Source: Eledone cirrhosa (taxonomy: Eukaryota). Taken from it: a DNA stretch of 64,000 nt. This document shows, piece by piece, positions 36,401-63,187 of this stretch; the stretch's first letter is position 1, and every line of letters begins with the position of its first letter. The notes below the pieces were generated by a model. That model did not search any database, had not been told where the DNA came from, and saw only the letters and a list, made by a program, of their open reading frames with translations. The stretch is taken from assembly GCA_964016885.1 (NCBI GenBank), contig OZ024744.1, forward strand, positions 5,828,001 to 5,892,000, written 5' to 3'. A program made the position numbers and the translations under genes.

Positions 36401-38197
36401 ATGGCCGAAGCTTCTTCACCAAAATTCGAAGGAGGAAAGGGGAAGATGAACTTACAGCTTCCCCCTGCCACTGTCACAGTAGCAGAGGTCAAGAAGAAAG
36501 GTCAGCCAGAGGAAGAATTCTCTCCACCTGTTAACCGACAACTTGACGTTGCCATGGCAACAACCCAAAGAACCAGCAGCAACAGCAACAACAACAACAA
36601 CAATGCGACGGACGAAAACAACACCAATAACAATAACAATAACAACAACAACAAGACCAATAACGGTGACAACAACAACAATGATAACAACAACACCACC
36701 AACGACAACAACAACACAAACAAACAAAATTTCTCCTTCGCCGAGACGACAAGGAAAACCCTCGACTATCTGCCAGTAGATATAACAAAAGCGAAGGAGC
36801 TACTGGCGGATGCGAAAAAATATATAGTGTACGGGGAAAATGGTTCATTCACAATCCATTCCCCCCCGGAACTAAAAAGCCAGAGACTCCTAAACACGGT
36901 CATGTTTAGGACAATCTTGAACAAAAGTAAAAAAACAGCTCAACCATCACAGAGCGAGATAGAGCTGGTTTTAAAAGACGTCATGAAGGACATCACCTTC
37001 ATTCAGAAGGATAGACTCTACGGGAGTCTATCCATTCTCATGAAGGACAGGGACACAGCAGTGAAACTGTCCATCAAACCAATCACATCCACCGCATACA
37101 CCTTCTACCCTACGTACATGGGTAGAAGAACACAAAAAATAAAAATCCACACCATCCTGCCGATTATGGACATATGGTGGGTTTTGACAGGTTTTCTGGA
37201 CCTGGAGGATGACATGCTGGTGTCCATGGGAAAGGCATCGGGTGACGCGTTCAGTGGAACGAGCCTCGAACTTGTAGTTCAAATGAGGCCCGAAAGGATC
37301 GCCCAGATCCCTGAACGCGTCATACTGGATGATCTAACCTTCATCAACATTACCGTTGAGGGTAGACGGCCCTCGTGTTACCTCTGCGGAACCAGAGGTC
37401 ACCTGAGGGCTGTCTGTCCCCAACTTAATAAGAAAACCCCAATCCTGCCTACACCACCAACAACTGCACAACCAACACAATCACCACAACTACCACTACA
37501 AAAACAACCGCCACAGCTCAAACCAAAACAAAACAATGTCCAACCCATCCCCTCCACTCAAAAAACAAAAACAATTTCCAAAACACCCGTACCGCAAACA
37601 AAACCCGAAAATATACCCCTCCCCTCCAACGCGGAAGATGACCCTAGTTCGTCGTCAGACGAGGAGGAGCACTTCCACACAATCAAAAGAAAAAAAAGAA
37701 AACACACCTCAGACACACAAATGAAAAAAACCCCTCCCCAAAACATAACACTGACACCAACACAAAAGAGCTCACAACAACAGCAAACAAAAAACACCAC
37801 ACAAAAACAAAAACATGCATACACATACATAAATACAAGAAACAAAAAACTGTTAAACATTGTGTACAACAACAATCTAATAAAAACACAAGGGCCTAAC
37901 TTCACCCAGGCAGGGGATTTCCCCCACCTCAAAATGATTAAGGCCCCACAGGACACCTATAAAACTTTAAAAAACAATTTTAAAGAAGACGTAGGTCCCC
38001 CCTGCGTCGGGCCCATTAACCGCGTTCTCCTAAAAAACTATCCCACCTCCTCCCCAAACACCCACACAACTCCAAGCTCCCCAACCACACAACACACTGA
38101 TGCCCCCACACTTCCACAAACCACCACCCCACCCAACAACCCATCCCCCACCCTAATGGAAATTGTGCAGCCCGATACCCGGGACGCAGAGAGGTAA
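36401..38197 (+). CDS. LINE ORF1 (gag-like nucleic-acid-binding protein), intact, 598 aa
   Basis: Zinc knuckle CYLCGTRGHLRAVC (CX2CX4HX4C), N-terminal poly-Asn tract, Pro/Thr/Gln-rich linker and basic KRKKRK motif. Homologous to ORF1 of copy B. Confidence 0.88.
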   Translation: MAEASSPKFEGGKGKMNLQLPPATVTVAEVKKKGQPEEEFSPPVNRQLDVAMATTQRTSSNSNNNNNNATDENNTNNNNNNNNNKTNNGDNNNNDNNNTTNDNNNTNKQNFSFAETTRKTLDYLPVDITKAKELLADAKKYIVYGENGSFTIHSPPELKSQRLLNTVMFRTILNKSKKTAQPSQSEIELVLKDVMKDITFIQKDRLYGSLSILMKDRDTAVKLSIKPITSTAYTFYPTYMGRRTQKIKIHTILPIMDIWWVLTGFLDLEDDMLVSMGKASGDAFSGTSLELVVQMRPERIAQIPERVILDDLTFINITVEGRRPSCYLCGTRGHLRAVCPQLNKKTPILPTPPTTAQPTQSPQLPLQKQPPQLKPKQNNVQPIPSTQKTKTISKTPVPQTKPENIPLPSNAEDDPSSSSDEEEHFHTIKRKKRKHTSDTQMKKTPPQNITLTPTQKSSQQQQTKNTTQKQKHAYTYINTRNKKLLNIVYNNNLIKTQGPNFTQAGDFPHLKMIKAPQDTYKTLKNNFKEDVGPPCVGPINRVLLKNYPTSSPNTHTTPSSPTTQHTDAPTLPQTTTPPNNPSPTLMEIVQPDTRDAER

Positions 38198-38221
38198 GTG
38201 CCTTTTCTCTTCACCACCAAC

Positions 38222-41200
38222 ATGGCTATGCTAAGAGTAGGCTGTTTAAATGCGCGTGGCCTGGGCTCAACTTGGAAGCAAGCAATGCTTCTAAATGACC
38301 TCAGGTCACAACGTATAGATGTGATGGTTATTTGCGAGGCCCGGATCAGCAACGTGCGACAGCTGGCCCCCACCTTTGATGACTTTGAGATGCACGCATC
38401 TCTCTGTCAGCCCGGAGGTGGGGGTGGAGTTGTCGTTCTGCTGCAAAAACATCTGGGTCTCGCAACACAGATGGTACATTTGGACCCGGAGGGTCGACTA
38501 GTGGTTCTGGACCTTGGCAGTGGTAAAGGCGGAGCGTTTAGGTTGGTAGCCGCCTACGGCCCTTTCGGGTCAATGCGGCCGAACTTCTTCCATCGTCTGG
38601 AGACTTTTCTAGGGACGTCCCGCTCCTTGCTATTAGTGAGGGACTGGAATGGTATCCTAGATGCACGCTGGGACTACGTAGGGGCCTGCCCCGATAGAGA
38701 GGGGTGTAATAGCCTCAAAGGGTTAATCGGTCGATTTGACCTGGCCGATAGATATCGACTAGATTTTCCGACTGCGCCAAACTGGACTTGGGCAAATCGT
38801 AGCGGATCATCTAGGTCGTACCTAGATAGGTTCTTAGTTAGAATTAAGGATAAGGACTTTTTAAGTTGTCCAAAAATGCGCATGGTTGGCTATTCAGACC
38901 ACAAATTAGTGACCTGCGTGGTCAACCTTGACAGAACTCATAGACAGGGACCCGGTTACTGGAAGCTCAACTTGTCCTTACCGGCAAGTAAGGCTTACAG
39001 GAACCGGATTAGCACTTTAGTTAAGGAGCGGTTGACGGGCGCCATCGTCAACAGCAGGTGGTGGGGATCTCTCAAAAGAGAGATTAGAGTAGTCTCTATA
39101 GAATTTAGTAAGGAGTTAGCCTCAAATAGAAATAGGAAGGAAAGGGAGTTGGTAGATAGTGTAGAAGAGGCAATTAGAAGCGGCGACGTGGCCAGAGTGC
39201 TAGCGCCGAGAACGGCCCTGGGCCAGTTCTTCGACGCGAAACACGAAGGCTGCATCGTCCGAAGCAAAATACGTGCTCTGGGAAACGAGGGCACCAAAGC
39301 TGTTAGCTGATCCCGCGTGACAGAAGCCAAAAGAGGGAGCAGATCCACTATCCGGTCTTTGCAAGACCAGGATGGACGGGTGATCCTTGAACCTAAGCAG
39401 ATGTGCGAAGCTTTTCAAAAGCACTTTGCCGGAATGTTCGGAAGGGGCGGGGGGCCGGTTTGGGACGTGGACTTCGGTCCATACCTCGACGGCCTGCCGC
39501 ATCTCTCGGACAGGGAGGCGAAGTCCTGCGAGGAGCCGATTTCAGCCGCTGAGATAGAGGACGTGCTGAGCCAATGCGGCAAACGCAAATCCCCGGGTCT
39601 CGATGGTCTTCCATACGAACTATATCTAGCTATGCCGGACTTGTTCCCCGAACTCCTCGAGGCGGTCTACTGCAACTGGCAACAGAACGGGAGAATTCCC
39701 TGTGCTGTGACCAAGGGCGTAGTCACGCTAGTGAGGAAGGACGAGAACAAGGGGGATGATATAAATAATTTCAGGCCCATAATTCTGCTAAATACAGAGT
39801 TACAGATTTTGGCCAAGGTGCTAGCAAAGAGGTTGGCGCTTGTCGTGGGCAACCTGGTGGGAGATGCGCAGACATGTGCTATCCCGTCCAGGTCCATCCA
39901 CGATAACCTCCACCTCATGAGATACATCATAGAGAGGGTTGGGAACGAACCCGGCTTTGGTGGGGCCCTGATCAACTTGGATCAATCTAAGGCATTCGAT
40001 AGGGTCGACCATGGTTACCTGGATGCGGTGCTAGCGGCGGCAGGCTTTGGACCCGTTATCAGGGGCTGGATCAATGCCATGCACAGCAGCCGCATCTGCT
40101 CTAGGGTCAAGGTGAACGGCTACCTCTCGGAGCCGTTCGAAATCGCGCGGTCCATCCGACAGGGGTGCCCTCTCTCCTCCCTTCTGTATGTAATGACTCT
40201 AGAGCCACTGCTGCGGAAGTTGGAGTTGTTGCAGGGCATCCCGTTGGAACCGGGATTGCGGAAAGCGGTGTCAGCCTACGCCGATGACGTAACAGTAATG
40301 GTGTCGACGGCCTCGGAAATCAGGGCGATCGGCACCTTACTGGAGGAGTACGAAAGGTTTACAGGGGCTAAGCTGAACCGGGACAAGTCGATCGGTCTGC
40401 AACTCGGCACGTGGAGGGGCAGATCGATGCCCTCCGATGGCGTCGTCGGGCGCTGGACGGAGGGCCCGGTGAAGTTACTCGGGGTCTGGTTCGGACCAGA
40501 CCTCCAGGTGGAGAAGAACTGGGGTGAGGTGACGAACAGGGTGTTTGCACTGACCCAGAAGTGGGCCGAGTGCAAACTGTCCCTGAAAGGACGGGGGGAG
40601 GTGGCGAACACTTATATAGCGTCCGTCATCTACTACCGCCTGACCGTTGTGCCTTGCCCAAAGGAAACGCTCGCCAAAATTGAGCGCGCACTCTTCCAAT
40701 TCCTTTGGAAGAAGCGGGCTCCTATGGTGAGGAGATCCATCTGCTGTCAACACCCTTCGAAAGGAGGGCTGGGGATGCCGTGGCTAATGATACGTAAACA
40801 CGCATTAAGGCTACGGCACCTCCAGGTATTCCTCTCCGGTCAACCGGTGTGGGCCCCGTTTGTGAGGCGAACCTTTCCCAGACTCGTCTCACTCACCGAG
40901 CTGCAATCCTGGGTCAAGCAAAGACCGAGAAAACTGGGCCCCTGGCACATCGAGTGTGCCCAGGCGCTCACGGCTCTCTGGCAGGCGGACCCGGCTCTCA
41001 GTGGAGAATCCACCTCGTCATTCTATAGAGGGCTGGTGGTTAGCAGGTGCGACGACGCCCTCGGAGAAGCCCTAGCCATGGAGGAAGACAAACTGGCCAA
41101 CCTGTTCGGTAGGACATTCAGCCCGGGACCCATGGATAACTTCCAGAGGTCCCTGGCCTGGCAGTGCTACAGAAGGGCTCTGCCCGTTCGAGAAAGGCTA

Positions 41201-41659
41201 TACAGACACGGGCGCCCGGATAGCGACCCCTCGAAAAAGATCTGTCCCAGATGCGTGTGCGACGAGGAAACCGTTGCACACGCATTGGTATACTGCTCGG
41301 GCATTGCTGATCTGTGGGGCTATGTCGAACAACTGCTGTCAAGGGTGTGACCGATACGGTTGACCACCGAGTCTATTGTAACGATCAAGCCGCCTACCCT
41401 CTTCAAAAACGAAGAAGAGGCGGTGTTTCTGTGCGTAATAGCCATGGCGAAAGAGGTTGTATGGTGGACGCGTCTGAAAGGACTGAGGTCAGACACCTTT
41501 CTCTCTGGCCAACAACTGGTCCGTTTCTTCCGATATCATTTCGGAAGAAGGATCAGGATGGAGAGAGAGGTGCTGCACCCCAGCCGTTTTTATGAAAGAT
41601 GGATGAAAGTGGCGAGAATGGCCCGTGTGAATGGGCCTTCACTCTACATCAGACTATAG
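38222..41659 (+). pseudogene. LINE ORF2 (AP endonuclease, reverse transcriptase, C-terminal Zn finger); one frame with two in-frame TGA stops
   Basis: APE motifs LNARGL, ICE, (G>R)DWN, SYLDR, SDH; RT motifs KSPGLDG, NFRPI, LDQSKAFDRV, IRQGCPLS, YADD; Zn finger CPRC..ETVAHALVYC. ORFs 38198, 39317 and 41360 share a frame, with stops at 39308-39310 and 41348-41350. Confidence 0.92.
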
Positions 41660-42170: not shown

Positions 42171-44077
42171 ATGAACGCTGCGTCCAACGATAATGGTGGT
42201 GGAGAGTCGGTAAGACTACATAGCTCGCAGTCAACATCGTCTTCTTCCCTAGATACTATGGAGATGGAAAGACGAAATGAAAATGTAAAAACAAATTCAT
42301 ATCCAAACAACACAAATGACACCAAACAATACAATGACAACAAAAATAACAACAACACCAATAATGATGATAAAAACAACAATGACAACAACAACAAAGA
42401 AAAAAATAAAGACAACACCAATAACACCAGCATCAAAGACAACAACAACACCAACACCAACACCAAGGAAAATACGAATAATATCAACATCAGTGACAAC
42501 AAGAATAACAACAACAATAACAACAATAATGACAACACCACCAACACGGATAATTCGACAAAGAAACCAAATTTCCTTTGCACAGACAGTTAAAAAAAAG
42601 GAGGAACTGACATATCTCGACATAACAAATGCCGAACAACTTTTAAAGGACGCTAGGAGATATGTCACTCTCGAAAAAAATGGTGCTTTCAGCATCAATT
42701 CTCCGGTAGAAATTCGCAAGGAAACTGCTCTCAAAACGATAGTTTTTAGGACAGTTTCCAATTCTACCCTAAAACCAGTCCAATTGTCACAGAAAGAAAT
42801 TGAACTGGTTTTCAAAAATTCAATGAATGATATTGCATTCATTCAAAGAAGCAAACTTTTTGGGAGTATTTCGGTACTCATGAAGGATCAATTGACGGCC
42901 CAAAATTACACTGTGTCGCCAATTGTATCCAACCTGTATACATTTTTCCCTACATACATGGGAAAAAGGACACAAAAGATTAAAATCACGAGTGTCACGC
43001 CAAAGGTGAACATATGGTGGATACTGTGCGGCTTCATCAATTTTGATGAAGACAGAATAGTGTCAGTAGGAAAGTCCCCCAGAGATGTATTCAATGGGAC
43101 TAGCATTGAAGTTCTGGTGCAAGTGATCCCAGAGCGAATAGCTATGATCCCACAACGTGTACTCCTGGACGGACTCACCTACATAAACTGTTCGGTTGAG
43201 GGTAGGCAGCCTTCATGTTACCATTTCTTTAGCAGGGGTCACCTGAGGGCTTCCTGTCCTAAATTAATGAGTCAAAAAAAGGCTCCTCTGCCGACACCCA
43301 TCAAAACAACACAACCACAACAACAACAACACCAACACACAAAAATAATCACAACAAACACAGTCCCACCCAACCCCACTCCACCTAAAACCACTGCAAA
43401 ATCACACACAGGCACAACAGCTCCCGAAGACATACCCGTCCCCAATCACACAGACGATACAACAGATGAGGCTATCTCGCCATCACCCAGTGAGAACCCC
43501 ATCGCTCGAAAAGAAAGGATAGACATCACAAAAGCAAAAAACCAGCAAACACTAGCACAAACATACAACCACCAACACAAACAACAGAAACATCACAAAC
43601 AAACCCCCACCTCCTGAAAACAAAATACCTACAACAAAACGAAAGCACACACAAGAACTACAGACAAAAACAAACACAACACAAGAAAATTACACTTACA
43701 CTTACATAAACACTGAAAACAAAACACTAATGGAGACCATCACGAACGACCCTTCGGTGAAAACCGAAGGGAAAACTTTCGCCCACTCTATTAAAAATAA
43801 CAAAAAACTGAACCTAAAACTGATTAGGGTCCCTATACAAACTTATAGGTCCCTAAAAGAAACATTTGAAAAGGATGTGGGGAATTCCTGCGTGAAACCA
43901 CTTAACCGCGTCCTTCTCAAATGTCTCCCCACCCCAGACACCCCCATCCCACCAGACCCCACCTCACCAAACATCTCCGTCCCCACCCCGCCGGAAACCA
44001 CCGCCCACCCAGGCAACCCCTCCAATACCTCCATGGAAATCGTGCAGCCTGGTCCCCAGGAGACGAAGGGTGGGTGA
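42171..44077 (+). pseudogene. ORF1 of copy B, frameshifted
   Basis: ATG at 42171, poly-Asn tract, frameshift near 42575 (NFSFA motif), degenerate knuckle CYHFFSRGHLRASC, another break near 43500-43620. C-terminal LNRVLLK...MEIVQP is shared with copy A. Confidence 0.85.
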
Positions 44078-44109
44078 TCTTTTTCCTCTTTTAACTTTTC
44101 AGCACCAAC

Positions 44110-47100
44110 ATGGCCAATATAAGAGTTGGATGTGTGAACGTACGCGGCCTGGGGATGCCCTGGAAACAGGGCAAACTCTTAAACGACCTCAGGTCGCACA
44201 GTATGGATGTGGTAGCCATTTGCGAGTCCAGGATCCACAGCGAGCGACAGCTGGCCCCCATCTTCGACGACTTTGAGATCTACGCATCTCTATGTCAACC
44301 GGGGGGTGGGGGTGGAGGAGTTGCCGTTTTGCTGCGGAAACACCTGGGCCTCGTAACACAGACGTTACATCTGGACCCGGAGGGTCGACTGGTGGTCCTA
44401 GACGCTGACGGTAGTGAAGGTGGAGCCTTCAGGCTGGTGGCTGCATATGCCCCATCCGGGACACCACGGCGAGACTTCTTCAAACGTCTAGAGACTTTTC
44501 TGGGAACGTCCCGCTCCTTGCTTTTAGTGGGGGACTGGAATGGAATCCTAGATGCACGTTGGGACTATGTGGGAGCATGTCCCGATAAAGGGGGGTGTAA
44601 CAGCCTCAAACAGTTAATCGACCGATTTGACCTGGCCGATAGATATCGACTAGATTTTCCGACTGTGCCACTGTGGACGTGGACTAATCGCAGTAGAACA
44701 TCTAGATCGTACCTAGATAGGGTTCTAGTTAGAAATAAGGATAGGGACATGTTAAGCTGTCCACAAATGTTCATGGTTGCCTATTCAGATCACAAACTAG
44801 TGACCTGCATGGCCAACCTTGATAGAACCCATAGACAAAGACCCGGCTACTGGAAGCTGAACTTGTCGTTATCGACAAGCAAAGCCTAGAGTAGACAGAT
44901 TAGCACTTTTGTTAAACAGCACTTGACAGGTGCCATTGTCAACAACAGATGGTGGTACTCTCTCAAGAGGGCAGTTAGATTAGACTCGTTAGTTTTTAGT
45001 AAAGAATTAGCGTTAGATAGAAATAGAACCGAGAAGGAACTGGTAGATAAATTAGAAGAGGCAATTAGAAGTGGCAACGTAGCCAGCGTGCTAGCAACGA
45101 GAACGGCCTTGGACCAGTTCTTCGACGCAAAGAACGAGGGCTGCGTTGTCAGAAGCAAAATATGTGCTCTGGGAAACGAGGGAGCCAAAGCTGTTAGCTG
45201 GGCCCGAGTGACGGAGGCAAAAAGTGGCAACAAGTCCACGATTCGGTCTTTGAAGGACCAAAACGGACGCGTGATACGTGAAACGAAGCAGATGTGTGCA
45301 GTCTTTCAGCGGCACTTTGCTCAACTGTTCGGGCGGTTCGGCGCGCCGGGAGGGGCTATGGATTTCGGTCCATACCTCGACGGCCTACCGCGACTCTCGG
45401 ACAGCGAGGCAAAGTTCTGCGAAAAGCCGATTTCAGCCGCTGAGATAGGGGACGCGCTTAGCCAATGCGGCAAACGCAAATCTCCAGGTCTCGACGGTCT
45501 ACCCTACGAATTTTACGTAGCAATGCCGGACTTATTCTCCGGCCTCCTGGAAGCGGTCTACTGCAACTGGCAACAGAACGGGAGAATTCCCAGTTCTGTA
45601 ACCGGGGGCGTGGTCACACTAGTCAGAAAGGACGAGAATAAGGGGGATGACATAGGCAACTTCCGGCCATAACTCTGCTAAACACAGAGTTACAGATTTT
45701 GGCCAAGGTGTTGGCAAAGAGGCTGGCGCTTGTCGTCGAGAACCTGGTGGGAGAAGCGAAGACATGCGCAATACCGACCAGCTCCATACACGGCAACCTC
45801 CACCTCATGCGATACATCATAGAGAGGGTATGGTGTAAACCCGGCTTCGGTGGGGCCCTGATCAACTTGGATCAGTCTAAGGCTTTCGATAGGGTTGACC
45901 ATCGTTACCTGGATGCGGTGCTCGAGGCGGCAGGCTTGGGACCCGTGTTCAGGGGCTGGATTGCTGCAATGCACAACAGCAACATCTGCTCAAGGGTCAA
46001 GGTGAACGGCTACCTCTCGGAGCCGTTCCATATTACGCGATCCATTCGACAGGGATGCCCTCTCTCCTCCCTTCTGTATGTACTGACTCTCGAGCCACTA
46101 CTGCGGAAGTTGGAGCTATTGCAGGGCATCCCTCTGGAACCGGGACTGCGGAAAGCGGGGTCGGCCTACGCCGACGATGTGACAGTAATGGTGTCGAGCG
46201 CCTGGAAATCGAGGAAGTAGGCACCTTACTGAAGGAATACGAAAGTTTCACAGGAGCGAAGCTGAACCGGGACAAGTCCATCGGTTTGCAACTCGGATCG
46301 TGGAGAGGCAAACCGATGCCTTCCGATGGCGTCGTCGGACGCTGGACGGAAGGACCGGTAAAGCTGCTCGGGGTCTGATTTGGTCCGGACCTCCAGGTGG
46401 AGAAGAACTGGAACGAAGTGACGGCCAAGGTATTTGCACTCACTCAGAAGTTGGCCGAGTGAAAACTATCCTTGAAAGGTCGAGCGGAGGTGGAGAACAC
46501 TTTTATAGCGTCCGCCATCTACTACCGCTTGACCGTCGTGCCTTGTCCAGCCCAAACGCTCTCCAAAATGGAGCGCGCGCTCTTCCAATTCCTTTGGAAG
46601 AGGCGGGCTCCTTTGGTGAGAAGATCCATCTGCTGCCAACATCCTTCTAACGGAGGGCTGGGGTTGCCGTGGTTGACGATGCGCAAACACGCGCTCAGGC
46701 TGCGGCATCTCTACGTATTCCTCACCGGACAACCGGTGTGGGCCCCGTTCGTGAGGCGAGCCTTCCCACGACTGGTCTCACTGACCGACCTGCAGTCCTG
46801 GGTCAAGCAAAGACCGAGGAAAATGGGCGACTGGCACATCGAATGTGCTCAGGCGCTCACAGCCCTCTGGCAGGCGGACCCGGCGATCAGTGGAGACTCC
46901 ACTTCGCCATTCTATAGAGGGTTGTGACGCAGCAAGTGCGACGACGCGCTCGGTGAAACTCTAGGCGTAGAGGAAGATGAACTGACTAGTCTGTTCGGTA
47001 GGACCTTCCGCCCGGGACCAATGGACAACTTCCAAAAGTCCCTGGCCTGGCAGTGCTACCGAGGAGCTCTACCAGTTCGAGAAAAGCTCTACAGACATGG

Positions 47101-47548
47101 GCGCCCTGGCAGGGACCCTGCAAAAAAGATCTGTCCGAGATACGTGCGAGACGAAGAAACCGTCGCGCACGCATTCATACACTGCCCGGGCGTCACTGAC
47201 CTGTGGGGCTATGTAGAACGACTATTGTCGCGGGTGGGACCAATCCAGTTGACCACCGAGTCCATTGTCATGATCAAACCGCCACCCTCCTTCAAAAACG
47301 AAGGAGTGGCGGTTTTCCTTTGTGTGATAGCTATGGCGAAAGAGGTTGTATGGTGAACAAGGTTGAAAGGGCTGAGGTCAGACACCTTTCTCTCCGGCCA
47401 ACAACTGATTCTTTTTTTCAAATACCACTTTGGAAGAAGAATCAGGATGGAGAGAGAGGTGCTGTACCCCAGCAAGTTTTATGAAAGGTGGGTGAAAGTG
47501 GCGAGAATGGCACGAGTGAATGGGCCTTCTCTCTATATCAGCCTGTAG
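44110..47548 (+). pseudogene. ORF2 of copy B (APE, RT, Zn finger), disrupted
   Basis: GDWN, SDH, LDQSKAFDRV, QGCPLS and YADD motifs. Stops at 44887, 46376, 46460, 46925 and 47354; frameshifts near 45670 and 46200. Confidence 0.9.

Positions 47549-48446: not shown

Positions 48447-48503
<57 letters not shown>
47789..48503. repeat. Compound (ATCT)/(CT)/(TA)/(CA) microsatellite field
   Basis: Alternating dinucleotide runs, interrupted by the RTE fragment at 48071-48242. Confidence 0.85.
48071..48242 (+). mobile_element. 3'-terminal fragment of an RTE-like LINE with inverted 5' portion
   Basis: The minus strand of 48071-48142 reads AVAEWYPRERKRALGRPPRRWSY. The plus strand from 48143 continues DFRNTIETIWMRKARSREEWTSCCDQR, matching the W.P...KR..GRP..RW / W...A..R..W C-terminus typical of RTE ORFs. 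Tail is (TCAAGGTGA)2. Confidence 0.75.
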
Positions 48504-48504
<1 letters not shown>

Positions 48505-48680
48505 TGAAACAAAATGAAAACGAAATTTCATTTCTCACTCTTAGTATGGCACTTACTTAAATGTAAGTATGCATGTATACGTACATACATATATGTATAC
48601 AGACGTACAGTAGCATGCACATATATATATATATATACATATATACATACATATGCATACAGGTACACATACATATGGGT

Positions 48681-48727
48681 AAACGGTGCTGATGATAGCT
48701 AACAAGCTTGAAACTAGTACATCGTTC
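48681..48727 (+). ncRNA. Minimal type I hammerhead ribozyme, copy 1
   Basis: Stem I AACGGTG/CATCGTT, core CTGATGA, stem II AGC/GCT, then GAAAC-TA-GTA with palindromic ACTAGT stem III. Confidence 0.8.
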
Positions 48728-49154
48728 CTGTGTCAGTGTTGAACAAAGGGGTGACGTGGTTGCCTTAACACCGTGTGGCATAAATTCAGGCTGTTCAGTT
48801 TGTTTACAAACGAACAAAGCGACGTTATAATAAGCGCCGCTAAACTGATACGTGCATATATGTATGTGTACCTGTATGCATATGTATGTATATATGTATA
48901 TATATATATATATATGTGCATGCTACTGTACGTCTGTATACATATATGTATGTACGTATACATGCATACTTACATTTAAGTAAGTGCCATACTAAGAGTG
49001 AGAAATGAAATTTCGTTTTCATTTTGTTTCAAAGTATCGTTTTCGGTATGCCTGACCGATTTAACTCACTCAATATGCAAATTAGGCTGCTCAGCTGTTA
49101 ATTTTCATAAGGAAAGTATATACTTTCGAACGTTCAACTATCTGGCAGATGGGT

Positions 49155-49201
49155 AAACGGTGCTGATGATAGCTAACAAGCTTGAAACTAGTACATCGTT
49201 C
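49155..49201 (+). ncRNA. Minimal type I hammerhead ribozyme, copy 2
   Basis: Same motif as copy 1. Confidence 0.8.
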
Positions 49202-49626
49202 CTGTGTCAGTGTTGAACAAAGGGGTGACGTGGTTGCCTTAACACCGTGTGGCATAAATTCAGGCTGTTCAGTTTGTTTACAAACGAACAAAGCGACGTT
49301 ATAATAAGCGCCGCTAAACTGATACGTGCATATATGTATGTGTACCTGTATGCATATGTATGTATATATGTATATATATATATATATGTGCATGCTACTG
49401 TACGTCTGTATACATATATGTATGTACGTATACATGCATACTTACATTTAAGTAAGTGCCATACTAAGAGTGAGAAATGAAATTTCGTTTTCATTTTGTT
49501 TCAATTTATCGTTTTCGGTATGCCTGACCGATTTAACTCACTCAATATGCAAATTAGGCTGCTCAGCCGTTAATTTTCATAAGGAAAGTATATACTTTCG
49601 AACGTTCAACTATCTGGCAGATGGGT

Positions 49627-49673
49627 AAACGGTGCTGATGATAGCTAACAAGCTTGAAACTAGTACATCGTTC
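49627..49673 (+). ncRNA. Minimal type I hammerhead ribozyme, copy 3
   Basis: Same motif as copy 1. Confidence 0.8.
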
Positions 49674-50509
49674 CTGTGTCAGTGTTGAACAAAGGGGTGA
49701 CGTGGTTGCCTTAACACCGTGTGGCATAAATTCAGGCTGTTCAGTTTGTTTACAAACGAACAAAGCGACGTTATAATAAGCGCCGCTAAACTGATACGTG
49801 CATATATGTATGTGTACCTGTATGCATATGTATGTATATATGTATATATATATATATATGTGCATGCTACTGTACGTCTGTATACATATATGTATGTACG
49901 TATACATGCATACTTACATATATATATATTTATATATATAAATATATATATATATATAAATATGAGGAAACATAATAGTGCCACAGACGTGCGACGAAAG
50001 AACTTTGATAGACTATATATATATCTGTATTTTTAACCGTTGGTCAGTCAATGATAAACATTGATTGCCAAATAAATTAACAGTGGAGATATAAAAGATA
50101 CAGAAAACCAACCAAACAGTGAGTGTGTTCTGTTGTTATTTCTGTAATATCATAACAATATGAACCTCCCCAAGTATAACAATATATATATATATGATAA
50201 GAATAAAGATAAAATAAAAAATATTTTAAAAATGATAAATAAAAGTAAAAAATAAATACATGGATACATTAAGAGAAAGATACAAAACGGGCCAGACAGT
50301 CATACATATATATACATACAAATATGTAAACACGCACATATATGTAAATATACATACACACGCTTATCCGCATATATAAATACATACATACACTCAAACA
50401 TATACATATATATATATACACATATATATATATATATATATGTATATGTCGGTGTAAAGATATATAGAAAAATACAATGTCGACATACAGATTTATACAT
50501 ACATATATA

Positions 50510-50597: not shown

Positions 50598-50701
50598 TGT
50601 TCAATGAAAAATAGTTAGTTGATTCAGCATCAGCTGACCTTTATATAACAGATGTAAAGCACTCAACGGTATATGCTTATCCGGAATTTAATCATAATAA
50701 T

Positions 50702-50886
50702 TGTTTCTACTTTAGGCACAAGGCCAGCAATTAACCAGTACATTACTGGTACTTTATTTTATCGACCCCGTAAGGATGAAAGGCAAAGTTAACCTCGGCG
50801 GGATTTGAACTCAGACTGTAAAGGGACGTAACTCTGCTAGAAAGCATGGCGTCCAACCCTCTACCGATACTGCCAATTCAACGCCC
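50702..50886 (-). mobile_element. tRNA-derived SINE (cephalopod-type, Nin/Deu-like central domain)
   Basis: Minus strand has A box TGGCAGTATCGG, B box GAGTTCAAATCC, central GCCTTTCATCCTTACGGGGTCGATAAAATAAAGTACCAG and 3' end GGCCTTGTGCCTAAAGTAGAAAC. Confidence 0.85.
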
Positions 50887-50887
50887 T

Positions 50888-51077
50888 TTGTTTCTATCTT
50901 AGGCACAAGGCCAGCAATTAAAACAGTGTATTACTGGTACTTTATTTTATCGAACCCGTAAGGATGAAAGGCAAAGTTAACCTCGGAGGGATTTGAACTC
51001 AGATCATAAAGGGACGTAACTCTAAGCTTCAAAGCATGGTGTCCGACTCTCTACCGATACTGCCAATCCACCGTCCG
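50888..51077 (-). mobile_element. tRNA-derived SINE, second copy in tandem
   Basis: Same A/B boxes and body. The pair is enclosed by the 15-bp direct repeat TTTAATCATAATAAT (50687-50701, 51078-51092). Confidence 0.85.
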
Positions 51078-51503
51078 TTTAATCATAATAATAAAAAACA
51101 AAAGACAGTTACTTTAGTCCATCCCAATTTATTTTATTATACGTATTTCGAAGATGCAAGGCTTATTGTATAACAAAAGCCAAAATATGTCCTCTTCAGA
51201 TGAAATCCACTGGAGGTGTAAAAATCATTTGATATGCAGGCGGTCAGACGAGCTGTTCAGATCAGTGACCAGAACGCATATGCTTGGAAGAAACGTCAAC
51301 ACGTTAGATATTATATGAGTGGGAGAAATATTACAGTTGGTATTGACGTTTTTGAACTGGCAAGAGTATGATGATACCAGATTGGTAAGAAGAATCAAAA
51401 CAAAAACAAATATTGACCGTTAGTCTATATATTTATAACTTGTGTTAGATTAAATTGGATACTTTACCAAAAAATATATATTCGAAGATGCTAAAGTAAT
51501 AAT

Positions 51504-51621
51504 TGTTTCTACTTTTGGCACAAGGCCAGCAATTAAAACAGTGTATTACTGGTACTTTATTTTATCGACCCCGTAAGGATGAAAGGCAAAGTCAACCTCG
51601 GCGGGATTTGAACTCAGTCCG
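51504..51621 (-). mobile_element. 5'-truncated SINE of the same family
   Basis: Runs from the B box to the 3' end. 18-bp TSD AGATGCTAAA(G/C)TAATAAT at 51486-51503 and 51622-51639. Confidence 0.85.
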
Positions 51622-52906
51622 AGATGCTAAACTAATAATGTAACTATATAATAAAGAAAACAATTTTAAATGCCTAATTTCGTAGACAATTTATCTTATT
51701 TTATGTTTATCAGGATACCGGATTAATAATTTAGTTCAAAGGAAAAATGCGTGTATTATAGCTTAATTTGTCAATTTATATTAAGATTAATTCACTTTTA
51801 TAGTAATTAAAGTTAAAATAAATTTAAATGCTATAAAGAACTATTATAATGTTTATTTGGTCTATTTAGCTTTATTAACGATTTAAAAATAAAAATAAAA
51901 TAGCTTAAAAACAATATAAAGAAATTTTATATTACTTATTTTATAGTCTATCAAGTTTTATTTAAAATTCAATTAAATACCCCATGAAACGTTTTTCTAA
52001 ACTTGTGAAGACAAGAACTGAAGATTTCCGAGCGTTTATTCATAATTAATTGTCTATTATGAATGATGTGGAGAACCTCTGTGGTACAGAGGTCACATCC
52101 CTTAGATATAGATACATTTTCATAAGTCAAAGCACGAGAAAGTTTCTGCCAAGAAAGGGGATATTCGATATTATTATTTTTAAGTGATCAAATCAATTCA
52201 GAGAGGTCCGTGCTAAATCTTTTATCTTTTCTTTTAAACGAGTGGCGATGGTTATACCACCTTTCTTTAAATTTAAAAGAGGCGGCATCAATATAACTAT
52301 AAGACTTATTTAAGATGTTGTTAATTCCGTTAGTAATTCTATGATTTTTATTGTCAGTTATTTCCCTATGTTTAATTCCGAGATTTCTATAGTTAAATTT
52401 TAGCTATATTTTGGGCAATATTTTTAATAGTTGAGTAGAAAAGTTTAATTGTGTCGGTTACAGATTTTACTGTATTTATGTGATCTAGGAAAACATTTAT
52501 CTAATGCATTAAATAAAAGACAAGCTAAGTTCTTAATTCCGATGGATATTGGTGGATTATACCACACAACAGAACGGGATCCAATCCTCTTATGTGACTA
52601 ATTGGTTGTATAAGAGTTATATCCATTCGAAATCTGATTTGATATGATTTTTATCCAATCTTACTTTATCCCTAATTATAGCACCAAAAACTCCCTTACT
52701 TATTTACAAATATAATTAACATATTCATAGATATGTATGAATATGTTTGACTGCTAATATATTTACTTTTTCTATGTATGAACTTAGGTGTGTATATATG
52801 CGGTCATACGTATGTGATTATATTATTTTGTACGTACAGTTTTATGTGTATATATGTATGTTTTGTATACATATATGTATATTAATTATATATATACTGA
52901 TATAAT

Positions 52907-54020
52907 ATGGGTGTATTGCGAAGATGCCTCTCCAGGAAACCCGGGAAATCAACTGACGCGTGCTCCCTCAGAAACTGCCCGATGCGCCATACGAACTGTT
53001 GCCTACGCACATACGTCGTGTATAAGATAGAATGTAACAAGTGCAACCACTACTATATAGGTAGCACAATCCGGCCGCTACACATCCGGATCAAGGAGCA
53101 CATTAACACCAGGGCCTCGTCTTTCCGGAAACACATAACCAAATGCGGAAACAAAGACGGAAGGCCCATTGTCACAATTCTAGCGACAGAGAGAAACCAC
53201 GTCGGCACGTTACGTATCAAGAAAGCACTTTGGATCAAACGCCACAAATAAATAACCGATCCGAGAGAAGCGAAATGAGGTGGTTGGTTTAAGTAAACAA
53301 ACGATGCAGCAACACACGCACACACACACAAGCGAGACAGCAACACACGCACACACACACACACACAGTAGCATTACACCATACGAACATACTACACTGC
53401 TAATACAGACGAACAAGGCAACAACACACGCGCACACACACACATCAAGCGAGACAACAACACACGCACACACACACACACACACACAGTAACATTCACC
53501 AAACAGGCAGAGAATACTATCACAACCACACACTATTCAACAGGGCAGATAATACAATGGACTGACAGCTAGCGCCACCCCACTCCCACAATTGAAAGAA
53601 CTACTTCGGCCGCGCACCTCTGCTTGACCGACCCTATTTCACGTGCACACCCGCTCTGCTGAGTACCTCAGATATTCAAAACAACGAACAGCGGTGGACA
53701 CATTGCGCACCTTTCCGACAGACAACGTCCCCCCCCCCGGAAAACTCCCCCAGTTGATGGATGTGAATCCGAAATATATAGGGACAATTAAATCTCCCCC
53801 AAGGTAACTATATCTCGTGTTATTATTTTTATCCTTTACGCTCTTTCCCACATTCTTCTACACGCTACACATCTCAACCTACATTCACTTACATCTATCT
53901 CTCTACCACCGGATCTTGTTACCCGGAGATTTACCCATCTGCAGTGTTGAGGCTTCCAAAACGACCTCGAGAAATATACCTTATTATTCCACAATGCTTC
54001 AAGCAAACTTCAATACTATC
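52907..54020 (+). mobile_element. 5'-truncated Penelope-like element: GIY-YIG endonuclease remnant plus 3' region
   Basis: ORF 52907-53251 has C..C/CC linker, VVYKIECNKC..YYIGST.R.LH.R.KEH..H (GIY-YIG with the CCHH motif of PLE endonucleases). A (CA)-rich 3' region follows; the 3' boundary is approximate. Confidence 0.75.
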
Positions 54021-57865: not shown

Positions 57866-60600
57866 TAGTTCTTTATAAATGAACTGGTTAACTTATACCA
57901 TATAACCAGTTCATTTATAAAGAACTAAGGAAGAACTATAAGAAAACCAGTAGTACAGCACTCACCTCTATAAACAATAAATCACACACCATAGTAAAGG
58001 AACTCAACATCGAAGATAGAACCGAACCTTTCCCACCAGAAAATCCACACTTTAATCTGAAAGATCATAAATCTAACTTCAACTCGAACCCATCGATTAG
58101 ACTCATATGCCCCTCTAAGTCGGACATTGGAGTAATAAGCAAGAAGATTCTTGGTAACATTATTCCACAACTAAGGAAACATATAAAACTGCCGCTATGG
58201 GAAAACACTTCCCAAGTTATCAATTGGTTCACCAACATCAAAAATAAGCCCTCAGCTTCATTTCTCCAATTCGACATCGATGCATACTATTCATCAATAT
58301 TCCCCATACTACTGAACAAAGCATTAATTTTTGCCAAAAATAGATCGGACTTAACTATGAATGAAATTAAGATCATCACACACGCTAGACAAACTCAATT
58401 GGACTTCCAAGACGAGTATTGGACTAGAAATACTTATAGTGATTTATATGATATCACTATGGGCTCGAAGGATTCCGCCCATTTACGGACCTTGTGGGCC
58501 TATTCCTCCTACATAATTTAAATTCCTCTTTTCCCCACCTTAATGGTGGTCTATATTGCGATGACTGTCTTCTTCTAGCTAATAATCTTAGTCTCTCAGC
58601 AATTGAGAGAAATAAAAAGCATATTAGAAAATTCCGCAAAAACTACTATAATCTTACGGTTACTTTTGAAAATAACACTAAAATGGTCAATTTCCTCGAC
58701 ATCAATTTAGACCTATCAACAGGCAGTTACCAACCCTACCATAAACCAAACCAAAACGTCCATTATATGTACTCACTATCTAACCACCCTAGTTCCATAC
58801 TAAACAATCTAGTGTACAATATCTCACTCAGACTATCTAAATTATCATCTAGTGAATAAATATTCTACAAAAATGCGCCTTATTATAATGAGGTTTTAAC
58901 TAGAAGTGGCTACAAAGATAAAATATTTTACATACCTAACACGATGAATACCCCCTAGCATACAGCCAACCATAAACAACAAACACCGTAGAAAACACCA
59001 AAAAGTTAGTGCCAGCAATGAAACACCGAAAAACCTAGATCCTACCATTACTCCCAATATCCACATTAACACGAATGACACAAATTCTCTAAAAATCATC
59101 AATCCTAACGATTCTGAATATTTCTATAACCTACCTAATATTATTACTACAGACCATACGAAAACACCTAACTCCACTACACTTAAAAAATGCAGTTAAT
59201 AATAACACCTTATATCTTAATTCTCACAATAAACCTAATGATATATCACCTATCAAATCGAACCTTCAACATAACCCAAATACATCCTTGCAATCCCCAA
59301 ATCTAGGGAAACATGTCTGAACTACCGTATATAACAGGAATGATACCGAAATTCCAGGTCCTATCAATAATGCTCCATTAACAAAACTCACAATATACTC
59401 TAAAAATCAAACAAAAAGCAATAATTCAAAAACTAATACAATTCAAAAATCTACTAAACAATTAGTTCACACCATAATAACAATCACAATATTATAATTT
59501 CATCTGATAACAGTATCTACCCTCAAACTTCTATACATACCCAATATCTTAAGAGGAAACCTTTTAGAAACCATAAAAGAAATGTAATATGGTATAACGC
59601 TCCATTCAACTTGCAATCTATGGGCCAAATCCCTAAAAAATGTTTTACAATTCTCGATAAGCATTTCCCACCTAACCACAAATACCATTAAATCTTAAAC
59701 AGAAATACAGTAAAATTTTCTTACTCCATATCGAGCAATATACAACAAAAAATAAGTGCATATAACATCTATAAATGTAAAAAAAGCTCCATCTATACCA
59801 CACACAAGATAACTATGGTAATACTACAACGCCTAACCAGAATATTACTGCATACCCACCTGATAGATCCGCTCACTCACCTCACCAGCACAATATAGCA
59901 GACTACAACCAACTACCATCTTCCTCATCCTTAATAGGGACTAAGATTTACATACCCAATCTAATTAATAGCGTCCAAAACAACCATGATTCCATAAACG
60001 CTATATCAAGTATAATTTCACCTACTAGCAACAATTCGGACCGCAGCCACCCTACCGTAAACCCTTCTCTCCCAAATAAAAAGGTAAACACAAATACTAG
60101 CACTATTATTGTGAATATGGATAGCACATCTGAAACCCTATATGCAAACGGTTGTAATTGTAGAATAAAAGATAATTGCCCCTTAAATGGAAATTGCTTA
60201 ATTAATAATATAGTATATAAATGTGTAATCACCACTAAGGACTCTAATCAATCCTATATTGGATCCACTTCTAATCCATTTAAATCGAGATTCTATGCAC
60301 ACACCCACAGTTTCCGAAACACAAAATTAGCAAATATCACTTCTTTAGCAGAAGCATTTAATAATTGTAAAAAGAGGAATATTAAATATAACCTAACTTG
60401 GAAGATTCTTAAGAGAGCTATTTCTTATCAGGGTAATAGAAGGGAGTGCGGACTATGTTCCCAAGAAATCTTTGAAATTACCAAATCGAAGGACACTCTA
60501 TTAAATAAAAGACGAGAATTAATTTTAGTATGTAACTATAAAATTAGAAGGACATTCAAATATTATAAACACAACTAAACAAATATAGAAAATGATATAG
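57866..60600 (+). mobile_element. 5'-truncated, decayed Penelope-like element (RT + C-terminal GIY-YIG; possibly Hydra-type)
   Basis: From 57901: LKDHKSNF..NPSIRLICPSKSDIG.ISK.IL, FLQFDIDAYYSSI, DITMGS.DSA, GLYCDD, VNFLDINLDL, WYNAPF, CNCRIKDNCPLNGNCL..IVYKC..YIGST..FKSRFYAH. Several stops and frameshifts; final stop at 60578. Confidence 0.9.
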
Positions 60601-60865: not shown

Positions 60866-60916
60866 AGATTCCTGATGATTTATAAAGAATGAAACAGTTC
60901 TAGTCCTGTAGAATCT
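60866..60916 (+). ncRNA. Type I hammerhead ribozyme in Penelope pseudo-LTR
   Basis: Stem I AGATTC/GAATCT, core CTGATGA, weak AU-rich stem II, GAAA, stem III ACAG/CTGT and cleavage triplet GTA. Followed by ATTAAAACCTTT, as in the 57.5-kb motif. Confidence 0.75.
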
Positions 60917-61046
60917 CATCTATATTAAAACCTTTATACTCTGCTATGTATTGAGTATCTTACTTACTGTGGTTACCTCCGATTCAACCCGGAATAACGT
61001 ACCTTTTAGCACTCTCTGTACCCCTTATAACCATCACCAAGAAACT

Positions 61047-63187
61047 ATGCTGACCAAACTCGACCTTGATGTCTCCATGAAGAACATCCCCATCCCTCCA
61101 AGGAAACTATACCTAAAAACACTTATCAGACGTACCGACGAGTTCATCAAGCGAATTAGATGGAGAGCCTTCTTCCTCGACAACCCTGATGTAGCATCTA
61201 CCAATGATGAGAAGTTCGGCTTCAAAACGAATAAGGCACCACCCACCAACAGCCTACTTGAACTATTTGAAGAAGACCTCTTCAAGATGATCAAATATAT
61301 CAAATTTAGTAGAGCCCCCACACCATTCCAGGCCTACTTAAATACTGAATTGCGGAATATAAAAAAATCCTCTAATCTTCATGTCCCCTCCGATAAAACC
61401 AAAAACGTTTATGAGGTAGACCCACAGACCTACAATAAACTGGCCAAAAATGCCATCACGACCACCTACAAAAAGGTAATAGAGATGGCATTGACTGAGA
61501 CAAACGTGGCCGGAAAAGAAATCGCCAATTCCCTTAAATTACATGACTGAACTGAACCTTTAAGGGTAAAGATCCCGCACTTTACCCTGAAGGACCATAA
61601 GGGAAACTTCCTCAACAAACCATCAGTCAGACTTATCAACCCCACTCGTTCAGACATCGGCTCTATCAGTAAGAAGATCCTAGATAGTGTTCTACCATCA
61701 TTGTGGGTTGCCTCACCACCCCCACTCTGGAGCATAGCATCTGAGGCAATATCTTGGCTCCAAGAATTACCCGACAAACGCCACACTCGCTTCCTGCAAC
61801 TCGACATAGGAACTACTATGCTTCTATCTCGGAGCCCCTCCTGAAGGACGCAATTACCTTTGCCAGGAATTTTACCACAATAACCGATGCTGAGCAAGTT
61901 GTTATCCTCCACGCCCGTAAGACCTTTCTATACCACGATGGATCTTATTGGATCAACAAGAAGTCTCAGACCCCATTTGAGGTGAGCATGGCAACGAGTG
62001 ACTCGGCTGAAAGTAGCGACTTATACATTTTACATCACCTGAAGAACCTCTTTACTGGCCTAACCGTATGTTTATACCGAGACGACGGCCTCTTCGCCCT
62101 GCACAAGGTTAACCCCAGAACCACCGATGGGTTTCGGAGAAACTTAAGCTCGTTCTTCTGTAATCTAGGATTTAGTATAACTATAGAATCTAATATGACT
62201 AGGGCCAACTTCTTAGATGTCACTCTCGACCTAGATAGTTCCCTCTATTACCCGTACCACATACCTAACGAGTCCCTTAGATATATTAATGTTAATTCTA
62301 ACCACCCCCAAAACATCACTGATAACTTAGTAAAAAGCGTCTCTATTAGAATCTCTGGCCTCTCTGCCAATGAAGATATTTTTAACGCCTCTGCCTCCTA
62401 CTACAATGACGCCCTCGCCCGCAGCGGACTTAAAGAAAAGATAACCTACATAGAAACCACCGCAAGACTGCAGAGGAAGAATAGGCATAGGCAGATTAGC
62501 TGGTACAACCCTCCCTTCAATAGAGAGGTCTCTACACCTATAGCTAGGATTTTCTTCACTTTGCTGAACACACACTTCCCCATACAACATAGGTACTACA
62601 CCATCTTTAATAAGAACACAATAAGACTTTCCTACTCCACCACACTTAACCTAGCTAGGAATATAGCCAATCACAATTCTAAAAAATTAAATAAGCCAAC
62701 CTGTCCCGAACCCAATCCCCGGACTGGGGCCTTGTGTAATTGCTTAAATAAGGAAGCATGCCCACTTGAAAACAAATGCTTGACAAATGATATCGTATAC
62801 AAATGCGATGTCATCTCAGGCACCGATGATTGCAACAACAAAAAGACTTACATCGGCATGACCTCCAATAACTTTAAGACCCATTGGTATGCCCATACCC
62901 ACTCCTTCAGAAGACCGGACAAATCAAACCAGACAACACTCGCCTCCTATGTTTGGGACCTCAAAAGTAACTCCACCCCCTTCGCGCTTAAATGGAAAAT
63001 ACTCCAGAAAGCGCGCTCTTACAACGGAGGACACAAGGGCTGCGACCTTTGTATCTCAGAGAGCTACGACATTTTATTCGCCAAGGGCTCGTTACTGAAC
63101 AAACTCTCTGAACACTGCCCGAACTGCATGCAATAGAACTTTGCAACTTTCAAATACTTTAAGCCAGTGTTAAAGCCCGATGGCTAA
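61047..63187 (+). pseudogene. Near full-length Penelope-like ORF (RT + GIY-YIG endonuclease), disrupted
   Basis: ATG at 61047; SMKNIPIP..Y...LI......IKRIRWRAFF, LKDHKGNF, FLQLDI, LYRDDG (catalytic), NFLDVTLDL, WYNPPF, CNC..CPL..KCL..IVY..YIGMT. TGA at 61548, frameshift near 61808, TAG at 63134. The Hydra-clade assignment is from recalled motif similarity only. Confidence 0.9.

Follow-up and report, generated by a model that had tools for sequence, protein, structure and literature searches.

A dispersed hammerhead retrozyme family in Eledone cirrhosa with insertions like those of Penelope-like elements

The window analysed here, a stretch of 64,000 nucleotides from Eledone cirrhosa, holds a non-coding tandem repeat which is confirmed as one insertion of a young, dispersed family of non-LTR retrozymes. 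As far as its sequence defines it, the element has the testable defining features of that class, yet inserts like a Penelope-like element (PLE). Mobilisation of the family by PLEs is very likely, and we favour, with a probability of roughly 0.68, the reading that its arrays are made by a Penelope-like (probably Hydra-type) RT-endonuclease copying a circular RNA of the unit repeatedly; the circularity of the template itself stands at about two in three. The retrozyme class and the PLE hypothesis are both already in print: mobilisation of animal retrozymes by PLEs via circular RNA was proposed in 2020 (PMC7229834) and gained support in 2026 from co-occurrence and from the phylogeny of pseudo-LTRs (10.64898/2026.07.22.740005), the mechanism being left open in the main texts of both papers. 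A two-site pairing rule and periodic edited units, as described below, were not found in the main texts searched. The present family offers such footprints at the level of single insertions: a pair of start sites, strictly paired ends, edited units that recur periodically, and a scar at the junction. They define substrate, start positions and products for testing in vitro with intact-looking candidate enzymes from the same genome. If the favoured reading is true, A-to-I edits become heritable through a retroelement, and the system would be a natural circle-to-genome writer.

The locus and its hammerhead motif

The features of the insertion are as follows, unit position 1 being the C after GTA at the predicted cut.

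48450..48503, no strand: (TA)n target, left side (sequence inspection and TRF)
48499..48676, minus strand: inverted arm, unit positions 139-316, 99% (sequence alignment)
48499..48560, minus strand: "tail" of ~60 nt, unit 255-316, on the inverted arm only
48675..48676, no strand: join of the back-to-back arms, 2-nt microhomology (junction analysis)
48675..49919, plus strand: direct arm, unit 428-472, two full units, then 1-254
48677..48729, plus strand: type I hammerhead 1, core CTGATGA at 48689, predicted cut after 48719
48720..49193, plus strand: unit 1, 474 nt, predicted monomer
48748/48749/48775 and 49222/49223/49249, plus strand: A>G marks, as at 49694, 49695 and 49721, in the other units
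49151..49203, plus strand: type I hammerhead 2, core CTGATGA at 49163, predicted cut after 49193
49194..49665, plus strand: unit 2, 472 nt, predicted monomer, folding z-score -6.8
49321..49451, plus strand: long AU/GU-rich hairpin inside the unit, positions 128-258
49623..49675, plus strand: type I hammerhead 3, core CTGATGA at 49635, predicted cut after 49665
49694, 49695, 49721, plus strand: A>G marks at unit 29, 30 and 56, unit of hammerhead 3
49920..49963, no strand: (TA)n target, right side

Read from left to right, the insertion thus runs from (TA)n through an inverted segment (316 to 139), a 2-nt overlap, direct segments 428-472, 1-472, 1-472 and 1-254, and into (TA)n again. An earlier sequence-only reading had described three hammerheads spaced 474 and 472 bp in near-identical units, an inverted partial unit at the 5' end, (TA)n at both ends and no remnant of RT or endonuclease, and each of these points was borne out: the three cores lie at the expected spacing, units 1 and 2 differ by three substitutions and one TA, and tblastn with eight PLE and LINE peptides of the window gave no match inside the units of the loci examined. 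TRF reports a period of 472 with 2.6 copies at 99%. The 472-nt unit contains no ORF and is non-coding, without LTR organisation. The inverted arm carries no hammerhead; its outer end is the "long" start site defined below, at 48499-48504, where TA homology blurs the exact position, and the direct arm terminates at the "short" one. The ~60-nt tail would correspond to the interval separating these two putative RT start sites. Any target-site duplication would be masked by the (TA)n that flanks both sides. The AU hairpin contributes part of the folding z-score of unit 2.

Three hammerhead-like patterns occur in 35300-64000 of the window, compared to a mean of 0.003 (maximum 1) in 300 shuffles, which is far above chance. 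The motif has an intact core (CUGAUGA, GAAA and GUA), and a type I hammerhead is found in at least two consecutive units, as in retrozymes. Helix I consists of 7 bp, a UA bulge and a further 3 bp, and helix II of a U-U apposition plus 3 bp closed by a 6-nt loop, UAACAA. The earlier description of these motifs as minimal is therefore not sustained, although the motifs themselves are present: they lack the short helices and the absence of a loop 1-loop 2 architecture that mark minimal PLE hammerheads. Helix III was correctly recognised as a palindrome, ACUAGU, which alone forms 1 bp and a tetraloop and between two motifs a 6-bp duplex. The U-U at the base of helix II had been called non-canonical. 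We do not regard it as a defect: an axolotl retrozyme described as active has it (PMC7229834), and in this genome it recurs in a sister family and in the hammerhead of a Hydra-type PLE. The Rfam match to HH9 is weak (18.5 bits against a gathering score of 52, E 0.86). Rfam matches to miRNAs, every one below gathering, were rejected as microsatellite artefacts.

Across 11 variants of the motif, which come from only three families, 11 of 16 helix pairs differ on both sides, compared to 0-3 in slid controls. This covariation supports the predicted fold and is silent on activity. The loop II consensus UAAYAA is conserved, helix I is extended and bulged, and a 469-nt family has G-C at the helix II position where the 472-nt family has U-U.

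The family, its fixed ends and candidate partner enzymes

The 46-nt hammerhead core has 8,271 exact matches in the genome and its reversed control none, and the best 41 DNA matches of the unit are 96-100% identical and spread over many contigs. Like retrozymes, the family is multi-copy and dispersed, with GC below 50% and self-paired RNA. We annotated 48 insertions located by searching for the hammerhead or the DNA, together with 82 at 80 loci chosen by the long end, a sample of ~130 out of at least ~1,000.

Two related hammerhead families, of 310 nt and 469 nt, are present in the genome. The 310-nt sister family (L033:6634-9002 and L241-L300) has 995 exact long ends, terminates at ~130-139 and 165, forms very homogeneous two-armed arrays and shares with the 472-nt family a CATTT..TTYCAAT motif at the long site. 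An older subfamily (L044, L120, L140, L200 and L235-L240), 75-88% identical, has the same long end, implying that the family has been active in several waves. A separate repeated hammerhead-like unit with a long helix II is present in four copies at L117. A metagenome scan recovered 48 loci with the same hammerhead architecture, none of them similar to the unit in sequence; these contigs (L331-L378), mainly from one data set, represent an unrelated dispersed element whose hammerhead likewise has a basal U-U, a UAAUAA loop and a palindromic helix III.

Arms of the 472-nt family terminate at unit ~251-257 (short) or ~311-316 (long) and then run into TA. Exact junctions of end plus TA number 958 (long) and 894 (short) genome-wide for the youngest subfamily, with none in controls. 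Of the 23 two-armed insertions of the discovery set, 19 pair a long end with a short one, as do 55 of 59 of those chosen by the long end; long with long occurs in neither set, and the remaining eight of both sets have one end unclassified. Short with short was absent from the discovery set, the only one able to show it. The 310-nt family follows the same rule (long with short in 47 of 55 two-armed insertions, long with long in none). The family thus presents two fixed 3' ends, an inverted truncated arm and an AT-rich target, as expected of an insertion mobilised by a PLE. Tandem copies accompanied by an inverted, truncated one and by a one-sided tail are reported as marks of PLEs, with TA as the target in the Hydra clade (PMC8557442). 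In vitro, the protein of an anole PLE was found to cut and extend both target strands and to start at two internal RNA sites, the interval between them being the tail (PMC11167929). The long/short pairing of back-to-back arms, 74 cases in all, is this Penelope tail footprint.

The predicted ribozyme cut plays no comparable part in where arms end. The cut junction is traversed by 141 of 194 arms, and 5' arm ends do not accumulate there in the same 194; a nominal pile-up of 14 was set aside, several of them being segment-splitting artefacts, and no enrichment is claimed. The exact 18-nt cut-junction sequence is retained in 418 of 445 junctions, with added bases in none. The earlier proposal that a Penelope-like RT mobilises the retrozyme in trans fits all genomic tests, with the refinement that two internal start sites, and not the ribozyme cut, determine where insertions end. 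Elsewhere, the 5' junctions at L040:~4110-4240 and L175 adjoin palindromic or inverted copies of flanking DNA and possibly reflect fold-back repair.

With regard to the enzyme, stop-free Hydra-type ORFs of ~758 aa with RWR, DKT and CxCX5C are abundant in the genome, and Hydra-type PLEs there have TA targets and two ends; the partner is probably of this type. About ten hammerhead-bearing end families run into TA, the majority at two positions, and the hammerhead of one Hydra family has a similar U-U helix II. No PLE sharing the unit sequence was found in three protein and DNA searches covering 90 loci including L036; at L070 there is one 59-nt match at 78%, covering the segment common to the 469-nt family. 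Junctions between PLEs and retrozymes at L036, L030, L049, L156 and L192 implicate different PLE families. At L036 the long-end arm of another Hydra-like family is joined to a short-end retrozyme arm, and L049 joins long end to long end, so that these hybrids may be nested insertions. Tail length was rejected as a partner identifier, since it is about 60, 30, 67 and 90 nt in different families.

The PLE relics noted earlier near the locus lie at least 3 kb off, carry different hammerheads and are candidate partners. Hydra-type relics occupy 57892-60578, 60872-63136 and 63822 (minus strand). In the hammerhead at 60872, helix II again starts from a U-U at its base, and this hammerhead belongs to a family with 85,852 first-look candidates and many ~758-aa frames. 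A GIY-YIG fragment (PF01541) at 52901-53251 (plus strand) represents an abundant, possibly Naiad-type family without a consistent hammerhead in 30 loci.

Repeated variants and the nature of the template

Counts of variants among the units of an array exclude segments differing by more than 4.5% from the family majority (older subfamilies and misalignments), unit positions 27-32, 84-121 and 296-316, and 6 nt at segment ends, and variants in no more than three insertions are called rare. In 57 insertions with at least four units, 135 rare variants affect a single unit, 22 are fixed in all units (16 of them spanning both arms) and 22 are partial (14 in two alternating arrays). This split suggests that units are made together from one template and mutated separately later. 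Several rare variants recur at two or three loci and may in part mark small lineages.

On the hammerhead strand, repeated variants comprise 32 A>G and 5 T>C, compared to 27 and 47 among single-unit variants. The bias persists without locus L121 (20 to 5, Fisher 0.0004) and without both L121 and the pure TA core (13 to 3, 0.003), and in the validation set alone repeated A>G is 10 to 2. Outside unit 128-258 and without L121 it is not significant (6 to 3, p 0.26), nor is it among rare variants of the 310-nt sister family (6 to 3, p 0.18). Of the 39 sites of repeated A>G across the family, 24 lie in the AU hairpin (unit 128-258). The 39 sites rarely have a G on their 5' side (1/39 vs 15/120), as reported for sites edited by ADAR (PMC5625713), and the downstream-A preference reported for invertebrate ADARs is absent (5/39 vs 30/120). 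L121 consists of an A/B dimer with a period of 948 nt, repeated 4.2 times and carrying 16 distinct repeated changes, all A>G, a pattern that an edited dimer circle read four times would give. Together, repeated A>G and the L121 dimer point to ADAR-edited circles copied by rolling-circle reverse transcription, as far as sequence patterns can tell. At L168, all five junctions lack 7 nt, the deletion ending either at the cut or one base ahead of it, and among 14 deletion matches it is found at no other locus. The window copy has G at unit 29, 30 and 56 in all three units where the family majority has A, and run X1, one of four public runs compared as contigs, shows A at 98-99.97% of depth at 49694, 49695 and 49721; these three changes are rare in the public contigs.

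Haplotypes change midway in the arrays at L122, L132, L130 and L275, which implies that more than one template can be used. At L130:4168-7110, ~4.5 units of the 469-nt family are joined at unit position 84 to the 472-nt family, suggesting a template jump between RNAs. Apparent period-3 or period-2 patterns of haplotype or length at L111, L174 and L033 possibly reflect trimer and dimer circles.

The sequence of events that we propose begins with transcription of tandem copies on the hammerhead strand, as inferred from the strand-biased A>G. The next step is predicted on the model of axolotl retrozymes: the ACUAGU palindromes of adjacent hammerheads likely pair, cleavage follows after GUA, and the monomers, at times dimers or trimers, would be ligated; a lone monomer circle, with only a 1-bp helix III, would resist re-cutting. 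ADAR likely edits some adenosines, chiefly in the AU hairpin. A PLE protein then likely nicks both (TA)n strands and primes twice inside the RNA, at ~254 and ~316, where the end pattern is directly visible and the enzymology is our interpretation. Running back across the cut junction, each cDNA would complete 0-14 laps, and microhomology would join the pair into the back-to-back arms with a one-sided tail that are observed. A more specific version, about which we are evenly divided, treats the arrays as fossil read-outs of single ADAR-edited circles: a dimeric Hydra-type enzyme would prime both TA strands at two obligatory sites, edits and ligation scars would enter the germ line with each lap so that editing becomes a directional mutator acting on a viroid-like family of genome scale, and template jumps would recombine different circles.

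The live rival, although we consider it unlikely, is twin priming by a PLE on an uncut linear multimeric transcript, with circles as by-products or absent and arrays lengthening later by DNA duplication. It stays live because only 1 of 9 Xenopus retrozyme dimers was cleaved in vitro (Li et al. 2026, 10.64898/2026.07.22.740005) and because the anole PLE, for which hammerhead cleavage is dispensable in vitro, mainly used unprocessed RNA (PMC11167929). Homogeneous source arrays would give homogeneous daughters, some variants recur across loci, and haplotype switches within the arrays at L114, L122 and L249 fit as well. However, a new one-unit change fixed in both arms (16 cases) needs a single-unit bottleneck, editing of a multimer would not recur with the exact period of L121, and the predicted ribozyme-dead L168 variant is amplified at one locus only, while later DNA duplication would make blocks of single-unit mutations, in contrast to 135 single-unit and 22 partial variants. 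An improbable variation on this theme takes cut linear monomers as template, with the RT jumping from 5' end to 3' end and no covalent circle. The combination of two families in one array at L130 and the haplotype switch at L275 accord with such jumping, but the exactness of the junctions over 18 nt and the lack of added bases do not, 5' ends show no concentration at the cut, and pooled molecules would mix edits between units; with 141 of the 194 arms extending across the cut junction, a cut linear monomer is not the simple template.

The unit could also be the pseudo-LTR of an unsampled autonomous PLE whose truncated partial tandems are the arrays, which the sequence-only reading had named as the finding that would overturn it and which we consider very improbable. 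The tail, inversion and TA target are as in PLEs (PMC8557442), helix II with its U-U resembles a Hydra-type PLE hammerhead, and PLE coding or UTR sequence lies directly 5' of an arm in L036 and L030. Sampled copies that pass position 316, however, continue to the next hammerhead and not to an ORF, and most of the 29 other copies of the PLE at L036 bear a hammerhead and ends of their own. In 130 sampled insertions (out of at least ~1,000) and 89 PLE loci of three families, no RT plus GIY-YIG ORF was attached to the repeat, and neither a pseudo-LTR arrangement nor a match of the pseudo-LTR type was seen. The last reading is that of an ordinary minisatellite in which the hammerhead is idle and which spread through unequal crossing-over or gene conversion. 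It could account for the tandem structure and internal microsatellite, and satellite birth from a PLE end has been suggested (Li et al. 2026, 10.64898/2026.07.22.740005). This reading is hardly credible and is already contradicted by the end pattern, in which 3' ends lie fixed in TA and 5' ends vary; the strict pairing of long with short, the dispersed copies and the strand bias of A>G stand against it too.

Comparison with known systems and neighbouring features

The closest relatives in organisation are metazoan non-LTR retrozymes, especially axolotl Rtz331/Rtz353, which share non-coding tandem units with one type I hammerhead each (PMC7229834; 10.64898/2026.07.22.740005), low GC, highly self-paired RNA, thousands of copies and co-existing PLEs. 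The weak palindromic helix III is as in axolotl Amex1 and the basal U-U as in Amex2, features that are united in one motif here; dimers of these axolotl motifs with a palindromic tetraloop or a basal U-U are reported to cleave well and circles to form (PMC7229834). The unit of 472 nt is above the range of 150-450 bp given in one account (PMC7229834) and within that of 51-972 bp given in the other (10.64898/2026.07.22.740005). Nothing in the main texts of these two accounts corresponds to the pair of fixed internal ends, the arms set back to back, the targeting of TA or the repeated A>G marks. Retrozyme circles have been demonstrated in coral, mussel and axolotl (PMC7229834; Li et al. 2026); for the present family the circle is a predicted one.

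EN+ PLEs of the Hydra clade (Craig et al. 2021, PMC8557442) and the anole Poseidon PAc (Frangieh et al. 2024, PMC11167929) likewise show partial tandems, an inverted 5'-truncated arm, a tail at one end, a (TA)n or AT-rich target and a hammerhead upstream of two internal RT starts. Unlike them, the present element has no RT/GIY-YIG ORF, forms whole-unit arrays of up to 14 per arm, starts 254 and 316 nt downstream of the cut and has a tail of ~60 nt, where reports usually give 30-40 nt. Chlamys elements of the non-autonomous kind, such as MRC1, are also PLE-mobilised, with multicopy head-to-tail insertions, but as described they share 3' sequence with autonomous families and most are without hammerheads (PMC8557442), in contrast to the present family, for which no shared partner sequence was found.

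Apart from the retrozyme and the PLE relics, the window contains at 1-35203 a 35-kb satellite with an 18-bp unit (about 1,970 copies, 93% matches) and, at 36401-41659 and 42289-47356, a pair of broken LINE copies in which ORF1, endonuclease and RT are recognisable, the former with RVT_1 and zf-RVT matches. A repeated element of ~115-190 bp, which we take to be SINE-like, lies at 50701-51067 and 51503-51617.
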